Shown here piece by piece: positions 22,001-64,000 of a stretch of 64,000 bases of DNA; position 1 is the stretch's first letter; every line of letters starts with the position of its first letter. The stretch covers positions 2,607,223-2,671,222 of the forward strand of contig OZ316892.1 in NCBI GenBank assembly GCA_973895155.1, read 5' to 3'. This DNA is from Marsupella aquatica. Its lineage: Eukaryota; Plantae; Marchantiophyta. The translations under genes and the position numbers were made by a program. The notes below the pieces were generated by a model. That model saw nothing but the letters and a program-made list of their open reading frames with translations, did not search any database and was not told the DNA's origin.

Positions 22001-22339
22001 ACTAGTGAATATAGTAGAGTAGTAGCACGTGTAACCTTAACCAAGTACTACATTCACTACAGTAGTAAGATTTATTGGACTGTCTTTTATCAATAAGTGT
22101 TCATGTACACTTATCAAGGGCTTGTACTTGTAAAGTTGTACTCTAGAGAACAATTTTCATGCCTGTTTGAAAGGTGCAAAGCGGGAAAACTTGGGTTGTA
22201 AACTAAAAGGAAGGATGAGACGTCTTGCAGCTAGGATAGTTATGAACTTATGTATTTTGCACTTACATAAAGACAACTGTAGTCAATCCAACAGGACATC
22301 TTGCAGTTATCCTTGTGCACTTAGAGAGAACTGTAGTAA

Positions 22340-23365: not shown

Positions 23366-25413
23366 GCGTCCAGTAGATTTGGTCTTTCACCCCTCCACGT
23401 GGTCGGCGATCTCCACAACGTTGACTGGATTGCAAGTCAGAATGATGAGCTACAGTCGGAAGAAATGTCGTCGCAGCTAGAGAGTGATGAGCTCGAGGGA
23501 ATTCTTTTGCTTCGCCATCCCTGGCGAGTCCCGGAAGCCTCGACGCAGCATCCTGACCTGACCCCACGGAACTACGGAAGACTGATCAATGATCATGGAT
23601 CGAGTCGTTTCACATGAAAGCATTCCGGACAAGCAATCGACGGCACTGTACACAAAGTACTACTGCTGTAAAGTATGCCTTTGTCCCCAACTCTCACAAA
23701 GTCACAAAGAAGTTTGGTGGGTGGGTGGTTTGATCGAGAAGAGAGCATCGGCATGCATGCATTCATTCATTCATTGATTCCTCCTTCCCTCCATCTCAAG
23801 CGGTTCGTCGACTGCTCTCCTATGGTGCCCCCTCTCTCTCTAGAATAGTCCAATCTCTCCTTGCCGACCCATCTGCTTTGCGTTCTGGAGTGATTGGACG
23901 CCATTCTGCTTTGCTCTCTAGCTTCTGATTTGATTTGATGATCTGGGGGTCGTTGTGGTGCCGGCCGCCATCTCAGGTGCTGTGGATCGAGTTTCGTTCG
24001 TCATCAGGAGAAGGTGAAATTATAACGGCTCTGCGACTAGTAACGCTCGGGCCCGCTTTGGGTTTCTAAACGCGTGAATCTTTCGAGTGAATGCCTTCAG
24101 CTTTGTGGTACTTGTGTGCTGTTTTCGTTGCCGCGAGATGTCATGTGAAATAATTTCGTGTGTATGAGCTCGAGGTTGTTAGGAAGCGAATCGCACAGAG
24201 CCAAGGGGAAGAATTTGTCAAATTTCCAATGTGAGGGGGAGGTGATCTATGGCTCGAAATGTCCAGAGTCTTACCTTTATGATTGAATTGAACGTCAGTG
24301 TGCCTTAGGAGGGATCCTCCTAAGTTCATCTGGTGGGGATCTGAGCGAGTAGAGCAGTTAGAGGAAGAAAGGGGTGTTTTTGGAGAGTCCTCGGAATTGG
24401 CCCATTACCGCAGAGAGATGGAGAGTTAAAAAAGGACATGTTTCCACACAAATTTCTAGGAGCTATCCGACCAGAATTCCAGCACCTTGGATGACGAAGT
24501 TTGAGAAACAAGTTTGTTCCAATCCAATCGAATGCACCATATTCTGTGACGGTTCCGTCCGAGAACCGTTAAGAGTTGTCGTTAGAGCTCCTTTGTCTCA
24601 GTAGTTTGAGCGCAAAACAGTTCTCTCAGTTTGTCACCGTTGAACTAATACCAAGAGAGCTCTGTCGACTGGCTTGCAGGTGACAGTCACTCATGTGAAA
24701 TATCAACTGGATTGCCAGTTTCTGGGACCCATTCGTGAGAGCAGTCCCTGACGACGAATGGCCATTTTGGATGGGGAGCAGCGTGCACTTACATGGACCT
24801 GTAGCTCATAAACGGAGGCGGCAGGGAGTTGTGGAAATAGGGAACTGGGTGATGGGAGTGTTTTGAATTAGTTACATAGATTTCGGAATTGTCTAGATCT
24901 GAGAATTGGCGGGGACTTGCAATCTTCGGCAATAATTTGACTGGCTCGGCCTCTGTTTTGACAAGGACGGAGATAGACTCTCGTACGATTGTGCGCAGTA
25001 TACCAGTGCACAATATCTTTTATGCATTCTCCAGACTAATCGGTTTGCAAGCTGGAGACGGGAAGGATGCTGCTTTTGGACATGGAGAATTGCAGACACA
25101 GGAAATGAACTATAGTAGGACACTCGAGTAAGCTCTTGCGTCGTTGAGGCGTTGGAAATTTCACATACCAGCATTATTCTTAAAACCCCGTGCACCGTAT
25201 CGTCCTATCAGGCTTTTGGACCTGATTATGAAAGACGTACTGGGAATAGTTTCGGTAATTGGTGCAGCGGAAGGCTTTCTTTGGTGATGCAACCTTTGGA
25301 TCTGCATTGGTGAACGCGTCCGAGATTTAGCCCTCCAAAGTTGAAATGTTTTGAAATAGTTTGGGTAGAGCAAAACGACTGTAGCACTTTTCAAGTAGCA
25401 ACGGTGTGTAGAC

Positions 25414-28400: not shown

Positions 28401-30827
28401 ATCGCGACCTTAATTGTTTTATTTGCTGCATTGGTATAACTAGCATCGCGAAGATAGGTTTTGTTAGAACTGTGACTTTGGTGGATTTCCAGAGGACACC
28501 AGCACATTTTTAAAGAGACTTGGATTGAAAGGTGAAATGAATCTACAACTTGCGTTCGTAGTTATGAATCGTTCTTCCCTCATTATGACGGATCGAGAGA
28601 GACCTAAAGTCATCTTTCAACAAGTTCATCAGTAAGAGAAGACAATTCTTTTAGGGGAAGCTATGTTGGTAATTGTTACAAGGATGAGTTCACCAGGTGT
28701 TAGATCTCGCTAGTTGCCTATTTTGAATCGTAAAATCTCGAAGTGCTGAGGAATCTGTGTTTACATTGATTAAAGTCCTTGATAGAGAAGCGGCTGGCTG
28801 TGATTGATTTGCGAAAGTTTCTGATCAAAGTTCTAAATATGCTATGCAGGTGTCGTCAAAGTCCATAGCAGCAATTCCTTCTCTCGTCATATATCCAATC
28901 TTTCCAACCCTCATTCTGGGAATTTTTTTCATCTACTGGACGTCAGTCGTGCTGTACCTATTCAGTGCCGGAAAGATTCAGGAGAATACATCTTGCAGTG
29001 ATGGCTGCTGCGCGTATGATCTCGCAACACAAAGTCTCAACTGTAACAGTTGTTGTGGATATGAGTTCCACCATAGCAAAAATGTTGTATGGGCTATTTT
29101 CTACCATATATTTGGAGGCTTCTGGATAACTCAGTTCATCAATGCCTGCTCGCTCACTATAATTGCTGGAGCAGTTGTGTCGTATTACTGGGTTCGTGGT
29201 GACAGATCTGTGAGTCTCTGTGCCTTCATTGTTCTCTTGATCATTATGATGACGCAAAGTTAGACCAAAGACTAATCGTGAAAACTAAATGGAACACTAG
29301 GGTGGATATTAATCAAATGTCAAAGAATATGACATTAACAGTAGGTTTGAGTCCTTTCAGTCAAATTTTACATAATCTACAATTTATTTCTATAATAATC
29401 TTTAAAACAAAGTGTCTAAAATCTGATATTAATCAGTAGCTTAATATGCTGATTGAGATGATAGAAATGTGTAGCAGAAGCAAAGTCTATTGTTCACTCA
29501 GGAAACAAATGTAAGCACTAGAGCCTGTCAGAACACCTCTGGATTTGTGATAGACAAAGTAGCGGGTTATAAAGTCACTTTTGATTCTAACTCATTCTGT
29601 TGGTATTGTGCAGCAACTTCCTGCTTTTCCTGTACTCTCCTCGACGAAACGTTTGTTTCGGTATAGCTTGGGCTCAATGGCCATAGGCTCGTTTTTGGTA
29701 GCGGTGATCCAAATGATAAGATTTATTCTGGATTTCATCCGGAAGAAGATCAAAGTGCTCGAGGCAGCTCCTGGTGGCTGTTGTATCTCAATTCTCTGCT
29801 GCTGTGCTCAATGCTGTTTGGGATGTATTGAATGGACTCTCAAATTTATCAACCGAAATGCTTACATTGTGGTACGATTTCGTTAACTCCACCGGATTCC
29901 TTTCTTTAAATGCACGATCTGTGAATATTATCTCCTACTTGGTCATGAATATGGAGTATTCCTTGCAGAATATTTGTAATGATAGAGAGTGGACAATTTG
30001 GCTCGCACGTCGCCCTGTTCTAAGTTTGCTCACCTTGCAGATTGCCATCAAAGGCAAAGGTTTCTTTGGAGCTGCAGCAAAGGCTTCAGCTTTAATTATC
30101 AACAATATCCTTAGGGTGGGCACCGTGAACATAATAGGAGACTTTGTATTATTTCTGGGTAAGCTCAGTGTGGGAGCTTTAAGCGTTTTCTTTGCCTTTC
30201 TCATGCTGGAGCAGCATCAATATAAATCTGGCAAAGACAAAGTCTCATCTCCACTGTTCCCAATCCTGGTATGTTACCTCCCTCGCAGCCTGTCCGTTCC
30301 TTCATTCTGTACTGTTGAACCATCAGTTCTGTCAAGGACTCGCTTGACATTTGAATAAGACTGCCTTATCCTGACTGGAATTTAAGAAACGCAGGCCATA
30401 TATTTTGTGTATTGTTTTAACTCTTTGGTTACGTTTGTATGGCATGACGTAATGACCCTGCTCCAACTTTTTGATTAATTCCATATCTTCAATGTTGATG
30501 TTGTGCTCTAACACGGATGTAAGCATGGGGATGTTTCTGCATGAAAGACGGATTACTTTGCTACATGTTGTTGAGGAGCTTGTCAATGTCAAAATGTCTT
30601 AAGGGTGTGCCCTGTATGTGCAGTTCACCTGGATATTTGCCTACTCAGTGGCGAGCATGTTCTTCGGGGTGGTGGAGATGGCTATTGATACAATTCTCCT
30701 ATCATTCTGCATTGACTGCGAAGAAAACAATGGGACTCCCCTATATGCACCTCCACTACTTATGGACACCCTCAGCAGACATGCAAGAAGGCAGGAGGAA
30801 ATAGAAGCAAGGAAAGGCTTGCAATAG
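25414..30827 (+). CDS. CTL1: Choline transporter-like protein (CTL/SLC44 family; CTL1/CHER1 homologue), 10 exons, 800 aa
   Basis: Exons 25414-25898, 26496-26833, 26991-27139, 27236-27419, 27507-27589, 28158-28271, 28850-29209, 29614-29871, 30041-30268 and 30624-30827. All introns are GT-AG and phase-consistent (2403 nt). Motifs: RHCRDIPFL, GIDYNGNVC, ICLRHCP, GPCYPV, RYSLGSMAIGS, KFINRNAYI..AIKGKGF, EMAIDTILLSFCID. Confidence 0.95.
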
Positions 30828-39393: not shown

Positions 39394-39635
39394 ATTGACG
39401 CAATCTCACGGAATGAACCGAGGTCGGAATTGGATGGGTATGCGAGGAGGAGGACTTCTGCGATGGAGAAACCGGAGACTGGGCAAATAATGTTCGTCTC
39501 GCTTCGACTTTCTTCTGAAGGAATGCGCGACAATGGAGAGGAATACTTCCGATTTGTTAGGGTTGGAGTGACTTCTAAGAATCCTCTGGAGGGACGCTAC
39601 ATGCATTACTGTCCTTCCTCTCGCTTCCACTCTAT

Positions 39636-40556
39636 TTGGAGGTGTAAAGCTATTGTGACACCTTGTGGGTGTAAGATTTCCTTGGAGGTGTGAAGCTTTT
39701 GTGAAACCTCAAGGTTGTAGGTAGCCCTCTTTTTGTGGGCGAAAATTAGCCAATAAGTTACCTAAACTTGTAACCTGTTGTTGGAGGGTTAATTACAGCC
39801 TGCTATAGTACACCTTGGGCGTGTAACATTTTGCTGGAGGTGTAAGTCTATTGTGACACCTTGTGAGTGTAAGATTTTGCTGGAGGTGTGCAGCTCTTGT
39901 GACACCTTGTGGGTTAAGATTTAGTTGGAGGTGTGAAGCTTTTGTGAAACCTCAAGGTTGTAGGTAGACATTTTTTTTGTGGGCTAAAATTAGCCAATAA
40001 GTTACCTAAACTTGTAACCTGTGGTTGGAGGGTTAATTGCAGCGTGCTAGATTACACCTTGGGGGTGTAAGATTTTGTTGGAGGTGTAAGTCTATTGTGA
40101 CACCTTGTGGGTGTAAGATTTAGTGGAGGTGTGAAGCTTTTGTGACACCTCAAGGGTGTAACCTGTGGAGGTTTAATTAAAGCTATTGTAGACATTAAGG
40201 GTGTGAAATTTTGTTGGAGGTGTAAAGCTATTGTGACACCTTGTGGGTGTAAAATGTGAAGCTTTTGTGACACCTCAAGGTTGTAACCTGTGGTTGGAGG
40301 TTTAATTACAGCTTGTACACCTTGTGGGTGTGACATTTAGTTAAGGGAATAATGCTATTGTGACACCTTGTAGGTGTAAGATTTTTTTGGAGTTGTGAAG
40401 CTTTTGTGATACCTTGTGAGTGTAAGATTTTGTTGGAGTTGTGAACTGCTTTTGTGATACATCAAGGATGTAACCTGTGGTTAAAGGTTTAATTGAAGCT
40501 ATTGTACACCTTGGGGGTGTGACATTTTTTGGAGGTGTCAAGCTTCTGTGACACCT
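39636..40556. repeat. ~46-bp tandem array with a 243-bp higher-order duplication, immediately upstream of PBB
   Basis: Unit TTGGAGGTGT(A/G)AAGCT(A/T)TTGTGACACCTTGTGGGTGTAAGATTT. The block at 39684 is repeated at 39927. Confidence 0.9.
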
Positions 40557-47057: not shown

Positions 47058-50000
47058 CACTAGAAGAAAACAGGGCCCTTTATGACCAATCACCCAATGA
47101 CGGAAATGAATCAATGACCAAAATTTCTAATGACACAGAAAGAATGACGAAAGAATGACTGTCCACAATGACCAATAGACTGAAATGACAAAATGATAAC
47201 TTTTGCGTCATTTTGTATAATGTCTATAATGACTGATGCGACCAAAATGACACAATTTACCTAAAATGGTCAATTTAGACACATGTCCTAAATGACCCAA
47301 TAAATAACAACAATGATAAATCAGTGTTTAGAACCATTATAGTCACTTTGGACAATTAATGAAATGACCAAAAATCTATTTGGGTCATTTTGGATAACGG
47401 TGATAAATGACAAAAATGTATTTCCGTCATTTTAACCAACGGTGTTAAATGACAAAATCTAGGGTCAATCTGAAAATAAGAATATATTAGTGTTTACAAT
47501 AACATACCGTCATTATGAACTTCTCTCATAAATGACTAACTCTAGGGTCAATCTTGAAATTAGAATATATCAGTGTTTACAACAATATACTGTCATTATG
47601 TACTTGTCACATAAATGACTAAATATAGGGTCAATCTAAAAATCATGATATATCAATGTTTACAATAACATACAGTCATTATGGACTTATTGCATAAATG
47701 ACTACTTATAGAGTCATTAAAGAACCCAAGAGATATCAAGATTAAAATACTCAATAGTCATTCCAGACACCGATCATAATTGTAGAGTCATTGAAGAATG
47801 CCAATGACTACAATAAGGGTAATGTCAGTGGTCATATTAGAGGTCATTTTGACCAAATGACTATATAAGTTGTCATTCAAGACATCCCTCATGGTGTCAT
47901 TATGGACCAGCATAAATGAGCATTTTTGGTCTACAAGCTTAAGGTGGGCCCGAGTGTGTCATGGGCCCTACATAGAGGTGAGAACCCCTCCACTTGGTGT
48001 GGGACACTATACTCATCATTGTCCAACCACTAGTTGCGGCATTAGCAATTTGAACACATGTCTTTGCATTTACTTAAGGCATGATGCACCTTTGGGGAAA
48101 TCACTCCCAAGTCGTATGACTTTGGAGTGATTTGCCAAAAGCGTCACCATGGATGCATACCATCACATCCAAAGGCAAATAAAAGTTGTTTTTGGGTTCT
48201 CCAAGAGGTAGTGTTGCACCAATGGAATGGGCAGGGGAGTCATGCTTCTCTGTATGGTGTGGGTGCGGGTTTAAGGAAGAGGAATATTCCAACCTTGCAA
48301 GGAATCTAAAATGGGCTCTCTTTGGAGGTACTAGGGCCTTTATTGGGTCATATGTGAGCAACGGACCGTCATAAATGCCAATGACTACAAGTAGGGTCAT
48401 TAGAATTGTCATATGGGAAGTCATATAAGTTTAATGACTGTAGTTGTGGTCATTTGAGGGGTCCCTTGTGTAGTCATTAAGCAAAAGCACAAATGACCAG
48501 TTTGGGGCTAGGGGCTGGAGGTGGGCCCTAGAGTGCCATGTGGCCCACATAGAGGTGAGAACCCTTCCACTGGGTGCGGGACACTATACTCATCATTGTC
48601 CAACCACTAGTTGTGACATAAACACTTTGGACACATGTCTTTGCATTTACTTAAGGCATGATGCACCTGTGGGGAAATCACTCCCAAGTCATACGACTTT
48701 GGAGTGATTTGTCAAAAGTGTCAAATGGGCGCATACCATCACATCCAAAGGCAAATAAAAGTTGTTTTTGGGTTCTCCAAGAGGTAGTGCTGCACCAATG
48801 GAATGGGCAGGGGAGTTGTGCTTCCTTGTATGGTGTGGGTGCGGGTTTAGAGAAGAGGAATATTCTGACCTTCCAAGGAATCTAAAGCGGGCTCTCTTTG
48901 GAGGTACTATGGCCCACATTGGGTCATTTTTGCACAAAGTTGTGTCATAAGTGCCAATGACTACAAATAGGGTCATTGAAATTGTCATATAGGATGTCAT
49001 ATAAGTCAAATTACTGGACTTGTTGTCATTTGAAGGGTCCCTAGTGCAGTCATTGAAGACAAGCCTGAATGACCAATTTGGGGCTAAGGGCTGGAGGTCG
49101 GCGCTAGAGTACCATGTAGCCCCACATAGAGCTCGCAACCCTTCCACTAGGTGCCAAATACTATATTTACGATTCTCCAACCACTAGTTGCATCATTAGC
49201 ACTTTGGTCTCATTTTTGTGTTTACTTAAGGGATGATACAATCTTGGGGAAATCACTCCCAAGTCATGCGACTTTGGAGTGATTTGCCGAAAGTGTCACC
49301 ATTGATGCATACCATCCTATCCAAAGGGAAATGATCGAAGCCATTTTTTGTCTCTCCAAGAAGTAGCGCAACACCAATGGAAGACTATCATCCTTCCATG
49401 TAATTGTGTCATGTTTGTGCCTTTGTTTGGATGGGGAATATTCTATTTTGCAAATGAATAGTGATGGGGCAATGAAGGATGTAGTGTAATCTTTATTGGG
49501 TCATTTTTAGACAAATTTGTGTCATAAATGCCAATGACTACAAGTAGAGTCATTAAAACTGTCATATGGTATGTCATATAAGTCAAGTGACTAGACTTGT
49601 GGTCATTTGTGTGGTCCCCCATGCAGTCATTAAATAGAAGCACAAATGACCAGTTTGGGGCTAGGGGCTGAAGGTGGGCCCTAGAGTGCCATGTGGCCCC
49701 ACATAGAGGTGAGAAACTCTCCACTAGGTGCGGGACATTATACTCATCATTGTCCAACCACTAGTTGCGACATAAACACTTTGGACACATGTTTTTGCGT
49801 TTACTTAAGGCATGATGCGCCCTTGGGGAAATCACTCCCAAGTCATACAACTTTGGAGTGATTTGCCAAAAGTGTCACCATGGATGCATACCATCGTATC
49901 CAAACGCAAATGGAACCATTTTTTTGTCTCTCCAAGAAGTAGCGCAACACCAATGGAAGGTTGTCATCTTGTGATGTAATTGTGTCATGTTTGTGCCGAT

Positions 50001-52659
50001 GTTTGGATGGGGAATACTCCATTTTGCATATGAATAGTGTCGGGGCATTGTGAGTAGGTGTTTGAATCTTCATTGGGTCATTTTGGAGGAATAGTGTGTC
50101 ATTAATGCCAAAGACTGCAGTAAGGGTCATTTTGGCAGTCCTTTTGGAAGTCATTTGTGCCAAATGACTCCATATGGGGTCATTATAGAGGTCCCTCATG
50201 GTGTCATTATGGACCATCATAAATGACCCTTAATTGGAGCTTAAGGTGGCCCTAGTGTGCCATGGGGCCCTACATGAAGGTGGCAACCTCTCCACAAGGT
50301 GCGGGGTACTATACCCACTATTCTCCAACCACTAGTTGCACCATGAGCAGTTTGGAGCCATGTTTTTGAAATTACTTAAGGGATGATCCAACCTTGGGGA
50401 AAATCACTCCCAAGTTAATATACAACTTTGGAGTGATTTGCCAAAAGTATCACCATACATGCATACCATCCATTCCAAAGGCAAACAAAAATTGTTTTTG
50501 TCTCTCCAAGAGGTATATAGTGCAATACTAGTGGAAGACTATGTCCTTCTATATAACTATGTCATGTTCGTGCCAACATTTGGATTTTGGATATATTCTA
50601 TTAAATTTCAAAGGAATTGTAAGGGGGCACTCCGAGAGGTAGTATACTCTTCATTGGGTCATTTTCACCTAATATCTGTCATTAATGCCAATGACTACAA
50701 TAAGGGTCATCTTGGTAGTCATATTGGAGGTCATTTGGAGCAATTGATTGCATATGTGGTCATTAATGAAAACACCTCAAATTAGGGTAATCTTGGTTGT
50801 CATACTAGAGGTCAGAAGTACCAAATGACTGGAAATGTGGTCTTTACAAAGGCTATTGGGGGGTTCTCTTTGGAGGCACAAGGGAGTTCATTGGGTCATT
50901 TGTGAATTAAATGGTGCTTCATTCTGAGGACTAAACGTGGGGTCACTCACGCTGTCATATTGGAAGCCATTAATGTTGGCATATTGGAGGTCATATAGTC
51001 ATGGGAAGGCTCACTTGTTAATGCTTTGGTGTAATGCTCTCAAAACTCTTAGACAACATAGCCTCATATGTAGTGGTCATGTAGCATGTAAGGGGCCCGG
51101 GAAGTGGGCCCTAGACGAGGGTGCTGGCAAGGGCATGTACAAAAGTACACATACTATACATATGTCTGTGAAACTAATAGTTGCCCTATAAGTGTGCTAG
51201 AGTCATGATTGAGGGTTTCTCTCAATTGAGTCATGAGTGGAGAGCTATTAAATGCTATCATTTGGATGAGTAACATTTGGTCCCTAGTGCAGCCATTGAA
51301 GACAAGAACAATGGTGTGTCATTAATGATAACACCTCAAATTAGGGTCATCTTGGCTGTCATACTAGAGGTCAGAAATACCTATCACCCAAAAAACATGG
51401 CCGTTACATAGTTAATTACACTAGTGTAATTCACAAAACCCTCACCTCCCATGAAGGATTAATTTGTTTAAATGAGGGGCGGGTTACGGGTTTAGGGTCA
51501 ATGTGATCTTGAGCCATAACTCTAGAGCACCCTAAACCCCTTGGTCCAAAAGGACCTTTTATATCATGGATGTCCTTTTTTATATATAACATTCATCCTT
51601 AACATTCTTGTTGGCACCTACACAAACAGCCATGACCTTACGGGGTCCAAACATTTTCATGAGCACGACATGTGCCTCTACCTGGGCTGGCCATCCTAGG
51701 GCCAAATTTGACATAGTCACCCTGTTACACATTCCCAGTCAAAGCAGGTACATCTACAACTCTCAAAATGGGGTAAAAGTATTGGTTTACACCTCCTTTA
51801 CACCCTGTTTACACCTTATTTGTAGGTCTGTAAACCAAGACTTACACCCTTGTGAATTCCCTCACGACTTCTCCCTTACATCTCAACTTTGGAACTCAAC
51901 CCTCATAGGCTCATCCAAATTGACTTGGGTGTCAACCTAGTTCTAAAACCAAGCTTTACACTGATGTACATTTATGTAAAGAGGATTTTACTCCTTCCCT
52001 TCGTGTTTTCAAAATCTCCACTCGCAAAAAATGCCGCGCTCAAGGCTTTTGGTGTTTCAAGACCTTCAACTCTCTGCCTATGGAGCTTCATGCAACTGCA
52101 ATGAGACCTGAAAATCTTCTTGGTCCGACGACTCACAATCGCCACCAGATCTTGGCGCTGCTTTCTTCCAAGTTTGCAACAACCAATTTCAATGCGTTCA
52201 ATGGAAATTCTTTCCATCCTTCCATTGTGCGCGACTGGACCTACTTTGTCAATGCCAGATATGGCCTTACATCTTGCGGTTTGAAGGTTGGGAGCATTTC
52301 GAGGTGACATGCAATCCAGGTGAGCGCAATCCAGGATCAGCTCGATGTTGGGCGATGGCGGAGATGAGGAGGGCTGCGCAAGAGCTTGAGGTCATGAGTG
52401 CTTCGATCTTTCTGGCTGTTGTCAGCCTACTTTGTGGGTACCCACGCAGACGTTGATGGACCTGATGTGAGTCAACCACATCTCCCAATGTGGTTACACT
52501 TCAAAAAAGTTTTTGAAATCTGAGCAGCAGTGAATATTGGGAATAGAACCAATGGAGGAGGATAAGTTGGGACGTCCGAATGGTGGATGGGAACTCGCAG
52601 GATGCCATGGAGATGCTGGCAGTGTGTGGAGATTTGATTGGAGCTGCGCAAGCTGCTAT
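47058..52659. mobile_element. CACTA element terminus with ATGAC-rich subterminal region and internal satellite; partner end not in window
   Basis: CACTAGAAGAAAACAGGGCCCTTTATGAC at 47058 is followed by dense ATGAC/GTCAT motifs, an ~83-bp repeat (47447-47700) and the ~576-bp array. The right boundary is set only by the next CACTA insertion. Confidence 0.7.
47860..51390. repeat. ~576-bp tandem repeat, 5 clear copies plus a degenerate tail
   Basis: The anchor AAATCACTCCCAAGT..ACTTTGGAGTGATTT occurs at 48098, 48675, 49250, 49829 and 50401. A further matching pair lies at ~50760 and ~51320. Confidence 0.9.
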
Positions 52660-53008
52660 CACTAGTGAAAAATAGTGTCCTTAATGACTAGAATGAGGAC
52701 TGAAAAATGAGTCATATGTACCAATATATGACTAGAGATTTTCTGTCATACCTGCCTCGTCTTTTAGGATAGTCAATTAAGACAAATGACTAAAACTCTC
52801 ACCAGTCATTTATGGTAGTCCTAAATGACACAATATTTTTGAAATGACATGTTGTCCTAAATGACTGAATGAACGGCCGTCAGTCATTTAGGCATATCTT
52901 TAATGATACATATTTAAACAAATCATATTACAACACGTGGCAACTACACATGGTTGTCATTATATGTCATTTCAAACATGTCATAAATGACACAATAATA
53001 AATCATTT

Positions 53009-53340
53009 AAGGTGTCATTTAGTGTGTCATTGAAGGTGTCGTACATGGTGTCATTAAAAATGTCATACAAGGTGTCATACAAGGTGTCATTGAGGGTGTC
53101 ATATAGGGTGTCATTGAGAGTGTCATTGAAGGTGTCATTGAGGGTGTCATACAGGTTGTCATTGAGGGTGTCATACATGGTGTCATTGAGGGTGTCATAC
53201 ATGGTGTCATTGAGGATGTCATACATGGTGTCATTTAGGGTGTCATACATGGTGTCATTGAGGGTGTCATATAGGGTGTCATACAAGGTGTCATTGAGGG
53301 TGTCATACATGGTGTCATTGAGGGTGTCATATAGGGTGTT
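53009..53340. repeat. 12-bp subterminal minisatellite (~27 copies) of the CACTA element, putative TnpA-binding sites
   Basis: (A/T)(G/A)GGTGTCAT(TG/AC) repeats with a 12-bp period (ATGACACCCTCA / ATGACACCATGT on -). Confidence 0.9.
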
Positions 53341-53697
53341 TTTAAGTAATGTCATTTGGGATGTATCTAAGAAGAGCTCATAGTTATATTCAAAATCACA
53401 TACAATGAATCCACTTAAACCCTAAACAAAGACATCACTTTGCGCATCATCATTGTATTCATAAATTCACACTCCAACATTCACAAGCTCTAATATAGAA
53501 TAATTGAAAAAATAGAAATCATCATTGTATTCAGAAATTCACATTCCGACATTCACAAGCTCTAGTATAGAACAATTGAAAAAACAGAAGTCTTTATGAT
53601 GAAGTGATAGAAAGTACACATTTTTCACTCGCATGAGTGAAACAATGGTAACCAAAATATTCAAAAATTCTCTGTTCTACATGATCAGAGAAAATGT

Positions 53698-56487
53698 TCA
53701 ACACTTTCGAAGAAACCTAGCATTCCACAATGTATTCATTCCTAACACATTCCGTAAGCAGAGTTGTTTCTCTTCTTTGTTGGGCATTGGCAATGCTGCA
53801 TCACCACAATACACTGCCTTAACTGATACTCGCACCCAAGGACTCTCAATCATGACACAATGAAATTTATCCTCTCCTAGTAACCCTGTCACTTCACCTC
53901 TAGCAACAACTGTAGAGCGATCCACAACGCTTCGTACTTCTATAGCATCTCCTTTTGAAAACTGCCACACAAAATTGTTAGGACAAAATATTGTCTTGTA
54001 GTACTGATTTGGGCATATCATCAATTTAAGAACATAAACCAACTGAAAACAAATTCACCTTTGCTGCTGGATTTGGGGAGAGAACTGGTCCTCGTTCACT
54101 AGGTGAGATAGTGATAGGGGTTGTTTTCTTGAATCTCTTTGAAGGCCTAGGTGGTGTAGCCTCTTGTTCCTGAATTGTATTTGACACTATCTGTTCATCT
54201 ATGATAGCAATCTCATCACTCTCACCATTACCAATGCTGCTTTGTACAATGCAAGGTTCTTGCAGTGCTCCCAAATTTGCTTCTCCCATACTTGGCTTTG
54301 GCTTCTGCCTTGTTAAAGTATCTGATTTCTCTCGCTGTGATACAGGATTCTCCCCTGAAGAAGCTACCACAAAACCAAACAATGAATGCTTAGAAAACTT
54401 CATTCCAAATTGAAAAATAAATTATTGCATATGTAACATGTTTAGAGTATAAGTTTGTATGTTCTTACCATCACCATCACCTGAGAAAGTAAGAGAACGT
54501 TTCCTGCTACTACCTTTAGGCTCAACCACCACCTTAGTAGCAATTGCATTTGATAATTGCATATGGAACTGATTCTGTTGATTTTGTGCAATGAAAGAAG
54601 TCATCATAGATGTCAAATTGTCCACTTTGAACTCAAGCTTGGTTAAATTCTCCACAGACTGTTCAAGCTTGAGTAATCGAGTTGGTTCCTCAATTATAGT
54701 TTCCCTGGAAAGTGGAGTCTACATACACAAACACACCATACAATGTCAATCATCAATAATAATTTGAACATCATGGATGACTTATAATCAAAATTGAATT
54801 TATATACAGGTTTTCATTACATACCGCTGATCCATGTGCAGATCCAATTCCAACAAAACTACTGCCTCGATGTTCACCACTGCCCATAGATGGACTGATC
54901 TGCACTGGGGGGACTGGACTACTAGACACAAGTTTTGATATAACAGGGCTTGTCAATCCTTTTGCTTTCTGGAAACACATAATCACATTCAAAGCAATTA
55001 GAATATTAATGAGAACTCATCATGTCATTGTTTACTCCTATACTAGATAAACACTTCAATTCAAATGACAATCTAGACCTGCAGTGAGATGGACCATATG
55101 AAGATTCTTACCAATCTTTTTTCTGCTCCAGCAGCCCCTCCTCTTCCAAAATGCTCTTTGTTCACCACTTCTGCCCTCCTTGCTTTCATCACAGCACTCC
55201 TTGCAAGCAAAGCAGGACTATCAAAATGATCCACCAGTCGTGCCCATTTCAATGGGTCAACATATTGAGGTCCTGGTTTGGAGCGATCACGTTTACATAC
55301 ATCCTTCCAATAAGTATTTAGTTTGTGACGTTCTCTTTTCAATAACGTCCGACAGTGACTAATAAATTTCTTGTTAGACACTGACTGCTTATCTGGATTC
55401 TCCCAATCTGCCTCCATCAATTTCTGCACATCCTCAATTATGTTTGGATCTTGTTTGTTCCAATCAGGTTCTGATACATCAAAAAGCCTCAAGACATTGG
55501 CACGTAGCTCCTCCATCCAATATGGTTTATTAGGATGAGAATCATCAATATCATTGTCATGAATCTGATAAAAACACCACAAATGATAGTCATCAACATT
55601 GAGAATGAAACAAACACCCAATTGCTTCTGAGTACACAAACTGTAGGCCACAAATGTGAAATGTGCAATGAAAATCTTACCGTTATCAATTTTCCCTTCT
55701 TATTGTCAGCCCTTCTTACACTACCGGTTCTTTGGAATTGTTTTTTGGCTTGCCTAGATTCCCTGCGTTGCTCTGTTGCAGTCTTTCTTCCCTCTACATA
55801 CACAATGAACATCCAATATTGATCATCCACAATTGTAAAATGAGGGACAAGAAATATTACAATATAATAGGAGGACGCTTCATTGAATTTGACTTACCTG
55901 AACCCTGACTGGATGTCACTACTGTAGAGTGTCCAGATTTCCCAATCGATGTTGATGGAACCACCACTATACACATGCAAACCACTGGAATTATGAATCC
56001 AACATTCATATAGATCAACATTGAAAAATACATTGAAAATCTTTGAAATTACTTACATTCAAATAGTTGGCCAGTCACAGGGTCTTTGTAACATTGCACC
56101 ATGCCACTCATGGAAGGTCCAACCTTTGTAGGGGTTTCTTTTGCATCTGCCAAGCTCTTGGATGGAGGTTGCAGATGGACCTGTCCAGATCAAGTTAAAA
56201 CCAATGTTATTAAACATAATCACTACCAATGTCTATAGTTTCCTCATATTGTTGGTGAATGTAATAGGAATCTCACCTTGGATGAACTTTGTGGTTTCTC
56301 ATCTTCACTGTACTCAGCATCAGTGTCATAATCTGATTCAGAGCCCTCATCACCAGACTCTGCCATACTCACTGAGACAATTCTTGATAGTCTGGAGCTC
56401 TGTCTCCTCTGTGTGGTAACCTCACTTCTAGGAGTTCGACGTGCACTTGTTTCCTTCTTGCGCCCTATGGTCTGTGTTGCACCCAAT
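53698..56487 (-). CDS. CACTA TnpA-like accessory protein, multi-exon (Ptta/En/Spm and TNP1/EN/SPM-type domains)
   Basis: Exon 55564-55112 reads WARLVDHF.SP..RSAVMKARRA..HFGRGG. The last exon 53961-53698 reads VVARGEV..H..WVRVSV..DAALPMP..LGMNTLW. Several short GT-AG exons lie between 54.0 and 56.5 kb. The start and full exon chain are not resolved. Confidence 0.75.
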
Positions 56488-56776
56488 CTACATCAGAGAA
56501 TATCAATGAATGAATGACAAGTACCAACAACCAACTCATATTGCTGATGAGCAATATTAACACATCTTTGCACATTCAAAACAACATGCAAGATTATACT
56601 CACATGAAATTGAAATTTTCTCCAAATATCTCCCTGAATTTTTTATTGTTGTTTGCTACCTTCTTATTTCGTTCCTCCTCATATGGAGGTATTCGCTGCA
56701 TTCACTGCTAGACCATGGCATGCCATGTTAGTATGATCCCACTATCAACTAAATGAAACCGGACTGTACAGTATCT

Positions 56777-59700
56777 TCAAACCATTCGTTTTCTTTTATA
56801 CTTTCTTTTTCCTTTGTCTGTAGTACTTGGTCCAGGCTCCTGTCTAGTTATACAGGCTTCTGCCAACTCTATGTGAAACTTAGCATTGTCATCCATAGTA
56901 TCATGGAAATCAACTTCCATGTAATCACCCAGCACCCTTGTAGACCTGGATTCCTTGTGGAGGATTGTCCTCCATGCAATCCCCTTATCATTTGGGTAAA
57001 AAAACACCTGTTCTATCTGTCGTGGCAAGACATAGTCCATTTTCTTGGAAGCACCCAGCTCCTTCTGAAAATTTACTTGCCACAATCCAGACGTATCATA
57101 TCTCATACTTGCTGTGGCTTTGGGAGTCCAAGATGGGTTTGCCCACCTTCCTTTGAAAAGGACCACTTCCTTTATCAGAGGCCCATAGTTCAACACTAAG
57201 ATGTCTGTCAATACCCCCACATATTGTACAGATTCATCTACTGTTGCCCCTGACCTAATGACCCGCTTCTCAGTGAATGTACAAGCCATCCCAGAATCAA
57301 AAGTCTTGAACCCAGATGAGTCACAATCAATCAAGGAACCTAGTGATGGAATGGTCCTCCAATGGTGCCCATAGGCTCTGCAGGCCCTGTACCGCAGTGC
57401 CTTCAGACTAGGTGGGACACTATACGCTGCCAACACCATTCGTTCAAACTCATTCTCAAAATTATGCCTTCTAATTGTCACTTCAAACCATTCTCTAAAA
57501 TGAGGCAACTCATCCAAATCAGAGGGATAAGGCACAGGATTCCTCCGATTTCCTGGATTCCTCATCCATTCTTTTCGGAAATCTGCTCTGTGCTTGGTAA
57601 CTGCCTCCTTTTGATCATCATAAACCCTGCATGGCAAGAATGACAGTCAGCTCCTAGGCCCACACAATTTCTGCTCAAAACTCAATTCTGTTTAATAATA
57701 AACAACAGAGAACTTAACAATATAAACCATGCTCATACCTATACCATGGTTCCACCAGCTCTTCATTCTCTAGTATGTAATGATGCATAGCTATCATATC
57801 ATTCCACTCCAAGGTGATTTGTTTTCCAACTCCTTCCAAGACAATGCCTGCAACACCAGGATTCTCCTCCAAGTCCCATGTTCTCATTCCTGTCCCCTTA
57901 ACATCGATCATGTATTCAGAAAGGAATCCTAAAGATTCATCTAGAAGGTAGCCTTTAGCCATAGAAGCCTCTGGACGTGCCTTGTTTCGAACATAACCCT
58001 TCAAGGTCTTTAGATATCTTTCTATTGGGTACATCCATCTAATGTTTACTGGACCACAGATGTCTAGTTCCTGAACCAGATGAATCAACAGATGGGTCAT
58101 GACATCAAAGAAGCTTGGTGGGAAATGAATTTCCATAAGGCAGAGTGTGAATGCAACATCCATCATCACAGAGTCGTACTGTGAGGGATCCCAAACCTTG
58201 GCACAGATGGTACGCCACACATTGCTCACTCTGGCTATGGCCAACCAAACACCTTCATCAAGTAATCCCATTGTTGCCAATGGAAGGATTTGTTGCATGA
58301 GGTGATGGAAATCGTGAGATTTCAGCCCTGATAACTTCTTCTTAACTGTGACACATTTAGCCAGAGAACTGCTGAAACCAGTGGGCCCTTTAAAGGTCAA
58401 CAATACCTCTAAGAACTTAGTCTTCTTTGTCTTACTGAGGCAGTATGGGGCTGGCGGCATGATCTTTGAATCTTTTTTAGGATCTGGATTTGGAACCAGC
58501 CACAGGTGTTCCGGCACGTGTTCCAGCGCATTCCCTGGTTTCTTCTCCACATATTTAGCGGCCTTTTCTCCCCAACGTTTCCTATTAGAGCTGGACACTC
58601 TACACGGTGCATCTCGTGCCTCTACCTCACCATTAAAGTATTTTGCCACTTCCTCTTTACGAAAATAGTGCCTCTGTGGTAACCAGCGACGATGGCCAGC
58701 AAACAGTAACTTGCCCAACTGTTTTGAACCATGTGCCACACAATTTGGCCCACAAACCACACATCCTTTGTACCCTGCATGTTGTTGGCCAGAGACTAAT
58801 CCATATGTAGGATAATCATTGATTGTCCACAATACTGAAGCCCTTAGCTTGAACTCTTGCTGCAATCCTAGCCTTGGTAGAACATCAAAACAATCTACTC
58901 CTTCTGACCATAATGTCTCAAGATCATCCACAAGTGGAGCCATGTATACATCAAATTGTTCCTCGCTTACAGACACAGGACCTGGAATTAGAAGAGCCAG
59001 CATGACAAAGAACTTCTTTGTGGAAAGCCAAGGAGGGATATTATAATTCAACAGCAGGATTGGCCTGTAGACCAGGCAATAGAATTATTCCCAAATGGAT
59101 TTACCCCATCAAGTGCCAATCCCATTCGCACATTCCTTGGCTCAGCAGCAAAAGCAGGGTCGATCTCTGTGTCCACATGTTTCCATGCCTTTGAATCTGC
59201 TGGATGTCGGACCATGTTGTCCTTGCTCTTGTTCTCATGATGCCAAGTCATTAGCTTAGATGTACCCTTAGTGGCATACAATCTCTTCAATCGAGGGATT
59301 ATAGGGAAATATCTCAAGACCTTCACAGGTTGTAAAGAATTCCCCACTAACTTCATCTTTGGCTGATTACACTTGGAACAATTGTCCAACTCTGCAGTCT
59401 CATTTCTAAATAACATACATCCATTCTCACAGACTGGGATTCTCTCATAGTCTAAACCCAATTTTCTCAGTAATTGTTTTGCAGCATATAGGTTTTTAGG
59501 GAGAGTGTGCTCTGTTGGCATTCCATGCTCAGTCAACAAAGACAGCATGGCATTCACTCCCGTGTTCGAGAACCTATTGTTGTGACAGATGTTTAAAAAC
59601 AACAACATGAAGGAAACTACATCTGTCTTACTGCCTGGAAATAAGGGTTTCATGGCTTCTTCTAAAGACCCTTGTAGAGGGACAGGATTTATAGGATGCC

Positions 59701-60265
59701 CTGCTGTAGGTGTGTCCTCAGCCCTGGTCTCAGCAAAGGGTGGATCTGCCTCATTCTCATCATTTTGAAACATTGAATCTATATCAAAAGGAGGATCATT
59801 ATCCACATATTCGTCAGACTCTTCAGAAGCTCTTGCCAATGTCTCCTGAAGTAAAACTCTGACCTGCTCTTCAACATCTATTGATGGCTGGCCTGAGTGG
59901 AATGCCTCTCGAGACATTCCTGCCCTCAGTGCCTCTATACTAGAGTTACGGATGTAATTGGATCTCCACTCCTCATCAGAAGAGTCTTCACCCTCTCCTA
60001 CCCACACTCGACAGGCAGGGTAGCGGCCATATTTAAGAAGATGTTGTCGACTGGTCTTTCGAGTAGTCTTAACAATCCCTTTGCATTCCATGCAAGAGCA
60101 ATACATTCTATGATCAGCACTACCAGAGCAAGCTGTCTGTTCCCGAGCCCATAAGTTATCATCACGACGTTGTATTCGACATGGATGGGAAAGAGGTAAA
60201 CTTCTCAGGTTGTCTGCCTCTATTGTATGTGCAGTGTTATGTGACCCAGCCTGGCTAGAAGCCAT
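56777..60265 (-). pseudogene. CACTA TnpD/Tnp2 transposase with a 1-bp frameshift
   Basis: Motifs in order: C-x-C-xx-C N-terminal motif, LGLDYERIPVCENGCMLF..CSKC, YFPIIPRLKRLY, RHPADSKAWK, RNVRMGLALDGVNPF, YNIPPW, WTINDYP, LKSHDFH, FPPSFFDVMTHLLIHL, WMYPIERYLKTLK..RNKARPEAS. There is an intron at 57738-57627 and a DUF4216-like exon at 57626-56777. The frameshift is at ~59065. Confidence 0.92.
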
Positions 60266-61279
60266 GATTGTAGCACTACCTAATCAAAAACACAGTTGCA
60301 CATCTTTCTTCTGTGACATCTTGCAGAGCTCTAGACAACTCCAAAACCCTTCCATACCATCTTCTAGAGCGTCATGTGAAGCAAACATGTGCACAAGTGA
60401 AGAATAGACATACATTTGAGGTACAGTACTCCAACTGAGGTAAAGGTAGCTCCCACTTTAGCCTTCATTGCCAATAGAATAGTACATGCATGCCAACAAC
60501 AGGTAAACAGATGACATATTAGCACTTGATCAGAAATTATTTACTTGGGTACGTTACCTAATCTCATTTCATATTGTAAGTGGCAATGGGTATTTGAAGG
60601 AGACTTGAATTGTACAAATCAAAATGTCATCAGTTTACAAGACCAAAGAAAGGCCTACCTGAACCAGATTTAGGCCAAGGGTGTTCACAGTAGTCAGCAA
60701 TCTCAGACCCTTCAAAACAGTGAGTACAATAAGAAACATTAATCATAATTTCCATCAATCCCCTCCTTCATTCTTTGACTTTTGAATACATTTGTTGAAA
60801 GTCCTCTTCAAATATATAGGCAATTTTTATTTGGGCAGGTACTAGAATAGATTCCACATCACAACATTTCATCATCCCCACACAAACCAGGATACATATG
60901 GACAAGGGCCTGAAAGGGTTTCATGTAATCTACATAATTAAACATATAGTGTTTCTATGCAGTAGTAAGAATGAAATACAGTCACTCAGTCTTCAAAATT
61001 ATCAAAAAGGAGAAAGTTCTAAGACCCGGGTTGAAGGAGTTGTTAAGGGTGTTGACACGGGTTTAGAAAGGCAGTACTACAAAACTTGAGAGACATTACG
61101 TGAAGTTTGCCTTGTTATGCCCAAATCCCTCAGTCAAAGGGACAACAAGAATTTTAAGACCTTGGGTGGATTTTAGGTCTTGCCTCTTAAGGTCAGTGTG
61201 ATGTTTTTTAGTTCTTTTGTTATGTATCTCCATTCAGGCTCTTCATATGTTTGCCATTGACAAAACAGTCATCATACAA

Positions 61280-61726
61280 TCAGAATTGATACTGGTCTTT
61301 CTCCACTAAGTGCTGCTCTACTCTAGGGCAAACAGTCTCAACCCTTGGTCCCAAGATTGGCTCATCATGGTGGAACATTATACAGGCACACCTCCTTTGC
61401 AGTCTAATGTGTCCATCCCGCCTATATATATCCCCAGGGCGCACTCGACATTTTGGGCAAAAATCCTCACAACTATGGATACAGGCAGAGTAGCAGATTT
61501 GCTGTGGTTGTACCACTCCATTATCGACTGCCACAATACAAAAACCTATGGGCAAGGGTGGAGCATCCAGAGTAATGGGCCGGCTATACGTGTCTTTGTG
61601 TACAGGCAAAAACTCCCATTGCACAGCAGAACTGGCAGGGACCAACCTCATTCCACTCAGCTTCAGGTGTAGCCTCTCAGCTCTGCCTTCAAGGTCAGCT
61701 CCCAATCTGCTGCGCGTCCTTGGCAT
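61280..61726 (-). CDS. Cys-rich orphan ORF (148 aa) between the PHD ORF and the transposase
   Basis: The ATG at 61726 lies 2 nt after a candidate splice acceptor (TTGTTACAG). The protein contains CYSACIHSCEDFCPKC..CAC..HH..C. No family recognised. Confidence 0.5.
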   Translation of the reverse strand: MPRTRSRLGADLEGRAERLHLKLSGMRLVPASSAVQWEFLPVHKDTYSRPITLDAPPLPIGFCIVAVDNGVVQPQQICYSACIHSCEDFCPKCRVRPGDIYRRDGHIRLQRRCACIMFHHDEPILGPRVETVCPRVEQHLVEKDQYQF

Positions 61727-61952
61727 TACTGTAACAAATACAAGAAGCAATAATTTATCCAACCCAAACACTCAATGAAATTCATGCAACAATTTAAGAT
61801 TCAACTATTTCATACAATCAGATAGTTTAGTCCATTTGAGTTTAGTCCATTAGACAGTGTAGTCCACTTCATACTATAATCAAACAATTTAGTCCACTTC
61901 ATGAATACTTAATACTATGTCGTGTTTCTCTACACAACTGAAGGCTTATGAT

Positions 61953-62651
61953 CTATTTGAAATCATGAGGTGGCACATCAGAACCCTCTGGAATGACATG
62001 GCGATTGTAGTACACCATACGCCATGGACCAATATCCCAAGTTTCTCTACCCTTAACCCCTCTCTTCAGGTGTTTGTCTGCCTCTGGTCCTTCATCTCTG
62101 CACCACGCACGAGGGCACCTACGACACTAGATAAATTCCCAGATGCCATCCCGATACTCCTTGCACACATCACAATAATGCCTTGGGCATATCAGAGCAG
62201 CGGGATGTGCATCTGAGTTCTCTGCATAAGTTATCAGAGGCAACTCGTTCGCCCTCAATATAGTCCGTAGACAACCCACATGGTAAAAGGAATAGCAATC
62301 GTCCTGTGCACACTGAATCACAAGGGGCTCATCTGTAGTGGGTTTCACGGTTCGGCCAAGTGACCCACAAGCAAAGCAACAAGCTCGGTTCTGCTGACAG
62401 AGGTCACAGAGCCACTCCTTGTCCCAATCATGCCCTCTAGAAATGGCAATGCGTGTGCACTCAGGCCCATGGCCATCAGGCTCCTCAACATCCTGCCCAT
62501 CAACTAAGTAATGAAAATGTCGACTGCAAGGCCCATCGCAGAACAAAATAGTACCTCCCTCATCACATTCAAAACAACAGGGGGGATCCATGCGAAGGTG
62601 CTCCTTATGGGCAAACTTGGGATCCAACCAGGCAGCAGCAGCCCGTGCCAT
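61953..62651 (-). pseudogene. EDM2-like composite PHD-finger protein with one in-frame TAG (62127-62129)
   Basis: From ATG 62651: CFECDEGGTILFCDGPCSRHFH..C..WLCDLC..CCFACGSLG..VIQC..DCYSFYHVGC..ICPRHYCDVC..FI*CRRCPRAW..RETWDIGPWRMVYYNRHVI..VPPHDFK*. The Cys/His spacing and the post-PHD segment follow the plant EDM2 PHD region as recalled from memory. Confidence 0.8.
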
Positions 62652-64000
62652 GTTGAAGAAAATAAAATCTGCACAATTGCCTTCAACATCACTCCAAAGT
62701 CCATTCAAAAACCAAGAGACAAACACAAAGAAGGTAAGTGAAGTGTACTTACTCACAGAGCAGTTGAGCCAGCCCCAGTCGCACCTCCAACCAGCACAGA
62801 CCTGTGGTTACCACACTCATCAGTCTCCCCAATATTTATTCCCCAATTGCCCCAATATTTATTCTCGGTCTAGCCAAACCAGCCTGCAGGCCTACACCAG
62901 CTATTAAGTTTTCTCTAACGTCCCAGCTGACAAAACAGCTCAGCCTCTGTTGCACTTAAACTAGAACAGAACATACATCTGAAAACATTCTGATCATCAC
63001 CTCCAAACCTTCCGCTTTAACAAACAAATCACAGCCGTCCGTACGTAGCTCTCAATCAATAAACATACAAACCCTGAGAGACACACCCTATCAAATTACT
63101 TTAGGAGAAGTAAATATACTCTACAACTGAATTCTAGGTTTGACATGATTGTATGAATTTTAATGGGTATCCTGTTCAGGAGATCATTAGTTGAAGTGTT
63201 CTAAGCAGCTCCAATTCTCAAATACGCACCTAAGGCCTTAGCAGAATTAATAATTATAGGCTTGTTGCAAAAACTATAAGGCCAGATAGGAATACCTTAA
63301 GGGTGAAAGGTTTGCGGACAATCTGTAGAGAGCAGATTGCCTACAATCAAATCGAGACGCCCATAAACCCTGCACAACCACCACACAACAATTGCACATT
63401 GCTGACAGGAAATCACATGAAAGAATGCAGTATAACCAGAAGGGAAGAAGTATAATGCTTCTAAAATTAACGGACTTTGAAGAGCATAGCAGACCTCAGA
63501 CATGATTTGCCGTTTGGTTCAGACAAAAATTAATGAGACAAGAGAGACAACAAGGTACCCGAACCTTGTAGCGGGAAGGGGAAAAAGGGACGCAATGGAG
63601 GAAAGAGGAGAAGATGGGCTTTCAGAAGAGAAAACACGACCGAGCAGGGTGAGACAAGCAAGACTTCATCAAAGGACAGAACGCTGGAGTATGAAATCCA
63701 TGATTACTCTGTTTTTAGATATATTATATTTTCAGAAGAATAAGGAAGCAAGGCCCAGTGGATCCACACTGTCTTAAAGGTACTAGCGGGCAATATACAA
63801 ACATCCAATCCCAAGCCAATAGATATAACATTTCTTGGCCAGCACAGACAGGAAGCTCGAGAGGAGCACAAAGCAAGCCGCACAGGGTGAGAGAGAGGCA
63901 TGAACACAAAAACCTATACAGACCAGAACGAAAGCTCCCTTCAAGCTGGGACTCTACTCTTGGTTGATCGATGTTGCTGATACTAGCTAGTGCACTTTAC

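Follow-up and report, generated by a model that had tools for sequence, protein, structure and literature searches.

The 64-kb window (the whole stretch of 64,000 nucleotides of Marsupella aquatica DNA analysed here) contains, at 61953-62651 on the minus strand, an intronless tandem PHD gene of the EDM2/NSD type that is broken in this copy. The open reading frame (62651-61953) has 232 codons, one of them an internal TAG that is translated as X, and begins about 25 residues ahead of its first Cys. A Pfam scan returned PHD_NSD (E=3.1e-9, 37.4 bits, cutoff 23.9), with weaker matches to PHD and PHD-1st_NSD. The start codon of a TnpD-type CACTA transposase (at 60265) lies 1,688 bp below the PHD stop, and both genes are on the same strand. 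This arrangement agrees with a preliminary description of the DNA, which had reported tandem atypical PHD fingers encoded by an intronless ORF about 1.7 kb upstream of, and co-oriented with, TnpD. The same description had held that reading through the TAG adds CRRCPR and an R.W...R..Y segment, and both are present in the 232-aa translation, which continues CRRCPR...RETW...RMVYYNRHVIP.

The premature TAG is codon 175 (62127-62129, minus strand) and is CAG (Gln) in other copies. An A>G difference at 62129 accounted for 278.7/278.7 of the contig depth in run X1, 33265/33435 in X3, 551.8/551.8 in X5 and 12.5/12.5 in X6, and Gln occupies the codon in all four full-length homologues (P0002, P0003, P0005 and P0006; P0004 is a fragment that ends ahead of it and was not counted). 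The window copy also has Tyr in place of Cys215, a residue that is Cys in the four homologues and in 94% of the other hosts. Given the CAG in four of four runs, the Gln of the full-length homologues, the Cys215Tyr change and a frameshift in the adjacent TnpD, the stop is ordinary decay of one insertion, and the CAG-to-TAG change that had been proposed to explain it is borne out. The window copy is dead and the family is not. No other copy of the PHD gene was found within the 64-kb window.

The transposase gene spans 56777-60265 (minus strand). Its product matched Transposase_21 and DUF4218 above the Pfam cutoffs and Transpos_assoc and DUF4216 below them (E<4e-4). The frameshift is near 59065, where the best homologue reads through, and there is a putative intron at 57738-57627. 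The best match among long proteins was from the liverwort Calypogeia fissa (52% identity), the other 119 matches listed having 34-48%. A multi-exon ORF at 53698-56701 (minus strand) was assigned to the TnpA position from its location and splice signals; scans of its single exons, in which Transposase_24 was sought, gave no relevant Pfam match. Beyond it lie a subterminal array of 12-nt repeats with a TGTCAT core (52943-53394) and a terminal inverted repeat (TIR), CACTAGTGAAAAA, at 52660-52672 (plus strand), which is the 3' end of the element as transcribed and has a candidate TSD, TAT, beside it at 52657-52659. A CACTA-type terminus, subterminal repeats and the TnpD domain set place the element in the CACTA/En-Spm group.

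Within the window, CACTAGTGAAAAA matched exactly at 52660 only, and a partner TIR, sought over the full 64 kb, was absent. TGTCAT was found 31 times in 52660-53400, once in the spacer (60266-61950) and not at all in 61951-64000. It had been claimed that no TIR or subterminal repeat separates the PHD ORF from the transposase, and these counts uphold that claim; a scan for the TIR and TGTCAT revealed no element end between the two genes or above them in the window. Two other sets of candidate termini were set aside: three CACTAGTGAAAAA-like words with two mismatches (one at 60392), as the number expected by chance was 2.91 on average, and CACTAGTG words at 19084 and 51419, which lacked extended similarity to the element. 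The region upstream of the PHD gene, 62757-64000 (minus strand), has no TIR or subterminal motif and its depth is low, so it is either subfamily-specific or unique.

Several other features were noted in the window. A tandem array at 47791-51381 consists of 5-6 copies of a ~577-bp unit, with 83-bp shorter repeats at 47446-47738. It is rich in GTCAT/ATGAC, resembling the CACTA subterminal motif, is followed by CACTAGTG at 51419, and may be a satellite or what is left of the end of another element. At the 3' end of the CACTA element, record 17 of run X3 (52400-52681) is a depth-81 contig that spans the flank and the first 22 element bases, where the match ends; the cause could be clipping or a different end variant at that site. 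Further away are a host gene of several exons for a choline transporter-like (CTL) protein whose N-terminus is proline-rich (25399-30358, plus strand; Pfam Choline_transpo), an LRR_14-type fragment that is possibly the relic of an NLR-like gene (15862-16275, minus strand), and an open frame of 534 codons (10495-12099, plus strand) that has a CxxC...CxxC motif at its C-terminal end and matched nothing in Pfam. Repeats are present at 2000-2630 (G-rich, with inverted C-rich arms), 22213-23367 (an 81-bp tandem array) and 39635-40556 (an array of 46-bp units).

The stretch was present in six sequencing runs with three organism labels from four studies, the kind of run being recorded for one of the six. 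Depth was assessed from contigs at 85% likeness in 30 bins of 387 bp over 52400-64000, and all 30 bins were covered in four of four runs. In X1, depth was 321-524 over the transposase, 331-583 over 60527-62848 (the spacer and PHD gene) and 99-156 above 62849. The ratio of PHD to transposase summed depth was 1.47 in X1, 0.98 in X2, 0.36 in X3 and 0.31 in X4, where one PHD bin is compared with the median of nine transposase bins and summed contig depth is not copy number. These ratios fit a PHD gene that is present in most organism A copies and in a subset of those of organism B; in X3 and X4, many copies may lack the gene and may have spread well without it. Depth also dips at 61900-61933, perhaps through an edge effect.

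At least three overlapping sequence types were found at one place in X1 (depths 87-99, 64 and 110-114), and dozens of variant contigs in X3. The PHD ORF is therefore multicopy by depth and by variant contigs, and not the single-copy host gene that the preliminary description had named as a possible outcome. At 80% likeness many variant contigs covered the ORF, but depth fell upstream of 62682 to 92.8/371.6/0/0, with a single contig in X1 and in X3 and none in X5 and X6. This indicates that the PHD coding sequence is conserved where its 5' flank is not. X5 has a loose end coding for a further N-terminus that starts at about the same position.

Searching a 90%-cluster library with the PHD ORF gave three matches among 46 candidates: P0002 (68% identity, 247 aa), P0003 (56%, 226 aa) and the fragment P0004. 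Two further proteins, P0005 and P0006, cluster with P0002, and the contigs that encode P0002-P0006 are 1.2-3.2 kb in length. The stand-alone homologues are 211-247 aa long and 56-69% identical to the window ORF, with near-identical start and stop residues; pairwise identities within the family are 56-68%. An exhaustive search of 1.84 billion representatives (a 50%-cluster library) produced 201 matches at E<=1e-3. Among the 150 of these that were listed, the PHD family scored 290 and 170 bits and the rest no more than 96 bits, at 27-41% identity, and long, high-scoring fused forms were not found. A transposase domain was seen in none of the 30 matches scanned, and no orthologue of the PHD family with more than 41% identity was found in annotated liverwort proteomes. 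As judged by these comparisons, the PHD genes form a stand-alone family that is conserved. EDM2-type cassettes that are likewise short and stand alone, P0011 (Marchantia polymorpha MARPO_0172s0021), P0022 and P0138, could also be TE-borne; P0022 and P0138 are Logan proteins, and the third finger of P0138 has the W-C-R-D ending that is common to the TE family.

To assess selection, we used the 40 best-supported of 80 variants in 61900-62900, of which 38 fall inside the PHD ORF, and scored each base singly. These 38 listed variants comprised 20 synonymous changes, 17 non-synonymous changes and one stop, and 21 of the 38 were at third positions. For 37 of them pN/pS was 0.23 unweighted and 0.27-0.35 transition-weighted (p=1e-5 to 1.4e-3), in a set that is non-random and contains the window copy's own decay, and that agrees with conservation at the protein level. 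The preliminary description had called for other copies and a dN/dS-type test; the ORF is multicopy in three organism labels and these values are well below 1. Together with the conserved family, they argue against a neutral Pack-type capture. Because the family is conserved as a stand-alone protein and pN/pS is about 0.23-0.35, we consider it highly probable that the PHD gene is a selected cargo of this CACTA lineage. The proposal of an EDM2-type PHD cassette as CACTA cargo is thus sustained by a multicopy, conserved and apparently selected gene in a CACTA context, and is weakened by the PHD depth of 0.31-0.36 in X3 and X4. A second locus with the PHD gene and transposase on one contig was not found in scans of the metagenome (P0003, alignment A1) and of viral contigs, which is no evidence of absence.

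The relatives of the cargo among host proteins are mainly from liverworts. The ten top host matches were six liverwort proteins (from Marchantia, Riccia and Calypogeia), one EDM2-like protein, two other angiosperm PHD proteins and one unnamed protein, and the same two liverwort proteins were the top host match for all three family members tested. The liverwort matches stop just past the PHD cassette and are short EDM2-like paralogues, not full EDM2 (MPTK1_1g03210, R1sor_003797, C. fissa CAM6087769.1 and MARPO_0172s0021); in the 30 matches scanned, DNMT1-RFD was found in nine and SET in one. Mixture-model ML trees placed the PHD family inside the liverwort-paralogue clade with support of 98/97 (30 rows) and 100/99 (27 rows). 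These trees were based on 33 hand-picked rows, from which P0135, P0153 and P0142, and then also P0138, P0152 and P0022, were removed. A quick tree of 154 of the 158 cassettes (four under 150 aa were excluded) left the family unplaced among long branches. The family has a stem branch of 2.3-4.0 changes per site. None of four alternatives was rejected by AU tests, namely a grouping with the two long EDM2-like proteins of Riccia (p=0.07), with seed-plant EDM2 (p=0.15) or with non-land-plant-type outgroups (p=0.24), and a position outside the paralogue clade (p=0.34). Eight diagnostic residues are common to the PHD family and the liverwort paralogues, and two to the family and 75 other hosts. On this comparative evidence the cargo is shown to be EDM2-type, and a liverwort EDM2-like paralogue is only favoured as its donor.

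Because some hosts have the cassette as a protein of its own, in M. polymorpha (MARPO_0172s0021, 280 aa) and among the grass EDM2-like proteins, what the element took may have been an entire small gene. An N-terminal RFD/RFTS domain was not detected by Pfam in the PHD ORF or its family. The C-terminal methyltransferase-like ELP domain, as defined in the available text of PMC7529245, is also absent, the ORF and all four full-length homologues stopping right after the cassette. The idea that only the reader module of EDM2 was captured is supported as to the type of cassette; as to its source, it is qualified by the short liverwort paralogues as nearest hosts, by the stand-alone host cassettes and by AU tests that leave the donor unfixed.

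An AF2 model of the PHD protein built from 88 aligned sequences had a pLDDT of 82.8 and a pTM of 0.80 (pLDDT 32 with only 6 sequences). The top Foldseek matches were the PHD-C5HCH tandems of NSD1/2/3 (E 0.007-0.017, none under 0.001), and VIA ranked an NSD PHD-C5HCH module first (Z 5.2, rmsd 2.9, 78 aligned), followed by rice Ehd3 (Z 4.0). The Atlas placed P0003 among streptophyte PHD_NSD clusters (0.93), a PDB sequence search returned NSD3 and NSD2 only (E 0.55-0.73), and a viral fold library contained no match with E below 0.5. Unrelated PHD proteins were thus not the best matches: the comparison with EDM2 and NSD PHDs that had been recommended yielded the PHD_NSD domain, EDM2-like proteins and NSD1/2/3 folds. 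No close solved structure of the full three-finger EDM2/NSD unit was found in the PDB sequence and fold searches.

The Cys and His zinc ligands from C26 to C179, plus C215/H218, are kept in intact homologues. In the third finger, the zinc ligands His184 and Cys187 (96% in hosts) have become Cys and Asp/Glu/Lys in the PHD family, and N84, H90 and Q91 are likewise changed; owing to these replacements, the binding surface of the family may differ from that of EDM2. The first finger retains the stretch C-x2-C-D-E-G-G-x-x-L-x-C-D-G and the invariant Asp22. By eye, with the register off by two residues, it resembles the H3-binding beta1 surface and acidic residues of NSD2, as far as these are described in the available part of PMC11724302. 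No catalytic or recognisable DNA-binding domain was recognised in the protein.

The predicted fold does not name a ligand, as the marks read by NSD modules of similar structure differ, and some read none. From the portions of the sources available, the NSD2 module reads H3K4me0 and H3K27me3 and NSD3 prefers H3K9me3 (PMC11724302), and NSD1 PHDV-C5HCH binds H3 very weakly and has the zinc-finger protein Nizp1 as a partner (PMC4838375). The PHDs of Arabidopsis EDM2 are described there as binding H3K9me2 (PMC7472560, PMC7529245), and EDM2 as promoting full-length transcripts with ASI1 and AIPP1 (PMC7472560, PMC7529245, PMC3632883). In Marchantia a large fraction of TEs is reported to be under H3K27me3, and hornwort TEs often have H3K9me1/H3K27me1 (10.1101/2022.10.24.513474, available in part). 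By analogy, the mark that the cargo might read need not be H3K9me2, which would be an unsafe default given the H3K27me3 on Marchantia TEs and the differing ligands of NSD modules.

Between the PHD gene and TnpD there is a second putative cargo gene, ORF2 (61280-61726, minus strand), which encodes a Cys/His-containing protein of 148 aa. Its sole homologue found was P0317, with 55% identity over 146 aa and no gaps, and a Pfam scan matched it to no family. A contig in X1 (depth 92.4) skips 61343-61857, which is most of ORF2. A short Cys-containing open frame of about 36 codons was also seen in the spacer above TnpD (60740-60635, minus strand). Ahead of the PHD gene, donor and acceptor words indicate a putative 5' leader intron (62669-62756, minus strand), with a donor cluster, GTGAGTAAGT, at 62756/62752 and an acceptor at 62669, 17 nt ahead of the PHD ATG. 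Those two are the only GT[AG]AG[TA] donors in 60260-64000. A YAG was found 2-17 nt before each of four ATGs (those of the PHD ORF, ORF2, TnpD and the TnpA-like ORF), against a background of 45% per ATG; the corresponding putative acceptors are at 62669, 61729, 60280 and 56705. This weakly suggests, after the fact, that one leader may be spliced to four ORFs, in a model of four post-hoc sites of which two have poor T-tracts. In En/Spm, TnpA and TnpD are produced via alternative splicing.

Our interpretation, which we hold tentatively and at slightly under even confidence, is that the locus is a decayed copy of a multicopy CACTA element whose lineage carries as cargo a conserved ~230-aa EDM2-type PHD gene, the product likely being an accessory chromatin reader that acts on silenced copies. 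Its demonstrated basis comprises the anatomy of the element, its multicopy state, the stand-alone conserved family, the synonymous-biased variation, the PHD identity and the predicted fold. A reader kept by selection in a transposon would be expected to give an advantage to its own family, most simply together with a DNA-binding or transposase protein, and it is reasonably likely that the PHD protein works on chromatin for the element. That the element gains by anti-silencing or access and not by insertion targeting is more doubtful, and we would put it somewhat short of an even chance. Action on the element's own silenced copies is favoured because the host relatives read repressive marks associated with TEs.

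We hypothesize that the cassette came by capture from an EDM2-like gene of a bryophyte into a CACTA ancestor, diverged fast and was later conserved. The 5' leader would be alternatively spliced to acceptors before the ATGs of the PHD ORF, ORF2, TnpD and the TnpA-like ORF, and each ORF would be made as its own protein. The PHD protein would then bind H3 tails with host TE-silencing marks (H3K9me or H3K27me), and family specificity would come from the element's TnpA-like or TnpD protein, as the PHD protein appears to have neither a catalytic nor a recognisable DNA-binding domain. Transcription or excision from heterochromatin would thereby be allowed. A broader hypothesis, to which we give a little less credence than to the interpretation above, is that a liverwort CACTA took a host EDM2-like reader long ago and remodelled it for anti-silencing or targeting based on histone marks, perhaps with ORF2 and through one leader, as part of a wider habit of bryophyte CACTAs of carrying chromatin modules.

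The PHD protein might instead be a targeting subunit of the transpososome that steers insertions to marked nucleosomes, an explanation that we consider unlikely. The PHD of RAG2/RAG2L accompanies a Transib-derived transposase, and the cargo is similarly a separate, small, non-catalytic protein adjoining a transposase. In the accessible text of the respective papers, nearly all invertebrate RAG2L carry a PHD and that of sea urchin binds H3K4-methylated tails (PMC7204232), and Rehavkus transposases have a PHD within them (PMC6446971). However, only a single insertion site is in hand, and the host relatives not only read TE repressive marks but act in transcript processing, which is a better fit to existing copies than to new insertions.

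It is improbable, though less so than the explanations that follow, that the cargo is not a reader at all but a decoy or adaptor that titrates partners of host EDM2-like proteins or another silencing factor. The long stem branch, the loss of His184/Cys187 and the changes at N84/H90/Q91 are in keeping with this, as is NSD1 PHDV-C5HCH, which binds a zinc-finger protein instead of H3 in the available part of PMC4838375. The kept first-finger stretch and invariant Asp22, which look NSD2-like by eye (compare the portion of PMC11724302 available), speak for a reader instead.

Slightly less probable again is neutral or camouflage capture of the Pack type, or a PHD gene that belongs to a different repeat and lies upstream by chance. 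The window copy is indeed broken, and its PHD-transposase linkage is the only one seen on one contig. In X3 and X4 the PHD gene has the lower depth, there is a trough at 61900-61933 that may be an edge effect, and Chenopodium CACTAs are known to have captured fragments on the 5' side of TnpD (PMC8978399, in the part available). Yet open frames and zinc ligands have been kept over 32-44% amino-acid divergence, with a pN/pS of 0.23-0.35, and identity to any host protein does not exceed 41% (among the 150 of 201 matches listed), which would offer little siRNA camouflage. Breakage is common to TnpD, hence not specific to the cargo, and there is neither a TIR nor a low-depth 387-bp bin between the genes. 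Finally, that this is an ordinary single-copy host gene beside a CACTA insertion, as the existence of stand-alone EDM2-like host genes and the low depth above 62850 might suggest, is very hard to credit and is largely refuted by the multicopy depth, with its overlapping sequence types in X1 and variant contigs in X3, by the stop and ligand loss in the ORF, and by the lack of an orthologue above 41% in annotated liverwort proteomes.

The reading of the PHD gene as a selected chromatin-reader cargo can be compared with several known systems, for which we draw on the available parts of the papers cited. Chenopodium CACTAs (PMC8978399) and Pack-CACTA (PMC13317346) resemble the window element in having a CACTA TIR and subterminal repeats, in the order of the TnpD domains (TAD, Transposase_21, DUF4218, DUF4216) and in carrying additional sequence 5' of TnpD, but there the additions are Transposase_24, Peptidase_C48, short gene fragments or satellites, whereas here it is a whole, deeply diverged and conserved ORF. 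Pack-CACTA elements are non-autonomous, with recent host-like fragments and no transposase, unlike the window element, which has TnpD and a cargo that is at most 41% identical to hosts and conserved over the whole ORF. EDM2 and its liverwort paralogues share with the cargo a cassette of 2.5-3 atypical PHDs and its ligand spacing, and the paralogues also share the DPP, CPRH and QCRRCPxAW motifs. The cargo differs from them in having no RFD-like N-terminus and no ELP, in the loss of His184/Cys187, in its 27-41% identity, and in being multicopy and in a transposon.

Other transposons with epigenetic or PHD-containing genes are more distant. VANC/KIU of VANDAL elements (MULE; PMC13317346, PMC6446971) are likewise separate accessory genes with an inferred anti-silencing role, but VANC is from another superfamily, recognises DNA motifs and causes hypomethylation, whereas the cargo has a predicted fold of the histone-reader type. 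In the fungal TET/JBP DNA transposons (PMC12730594), EnSpm elements also stably carry a captured epigenetic gene; that gene encodes an enzyme acting on methylated DNA, in contrast to a non-catalytic reader in a plant. A PHD finger also travels with a cut-and-paste transposase in RAGL (RAG2L PHD; PMC7204232) and Rehavkus (PMC6446971), but these are mainly animal elements in which one PHD is fused either to a kelch propeller or to the transposase, unlike the lone EDM2/NSD tandem cassette of the window.

In the literature searched, with Repbase, subscription journals and supplements lying outside it, we found no description of a CACTA with an EDM2-type or other PHD cargo, in line with the claim of the preliminary description that none was known. 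In the available main text of a structure survey of CACTAs (PMC8978399) and of a review on gene capture from 2026 (PMC13317346), "PHD" occurs 0 times, and in PMC4788410 EDM2 appears in the reference list only.

As in the cases above, a PHD finger travels with a cut-and-paste transposase in AcademHP. To our knowledge, the plant TE-encoded anti-silencing factors that are known work through DNA motifs, and Spm TnpA, which is anti-silencing, does so. The available parts of PMC13317346 and PMC6446971 describe VANC as working through DNA motifs too. If the broader hypothesis is true, plants would have a histone reader encoded by a transposon, unlike VANC, which depends on DNA motifs. The cargo would also provide, at 26 kDa and in soluble form, experimental access to the EDM2/NSD tandem PHD cassette. 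An EDM2-type reader maintained by a DNA transposon would represent a second route to anti-silencing, in a lineage in which TEs have both H3K9 and H3K27 methylation.
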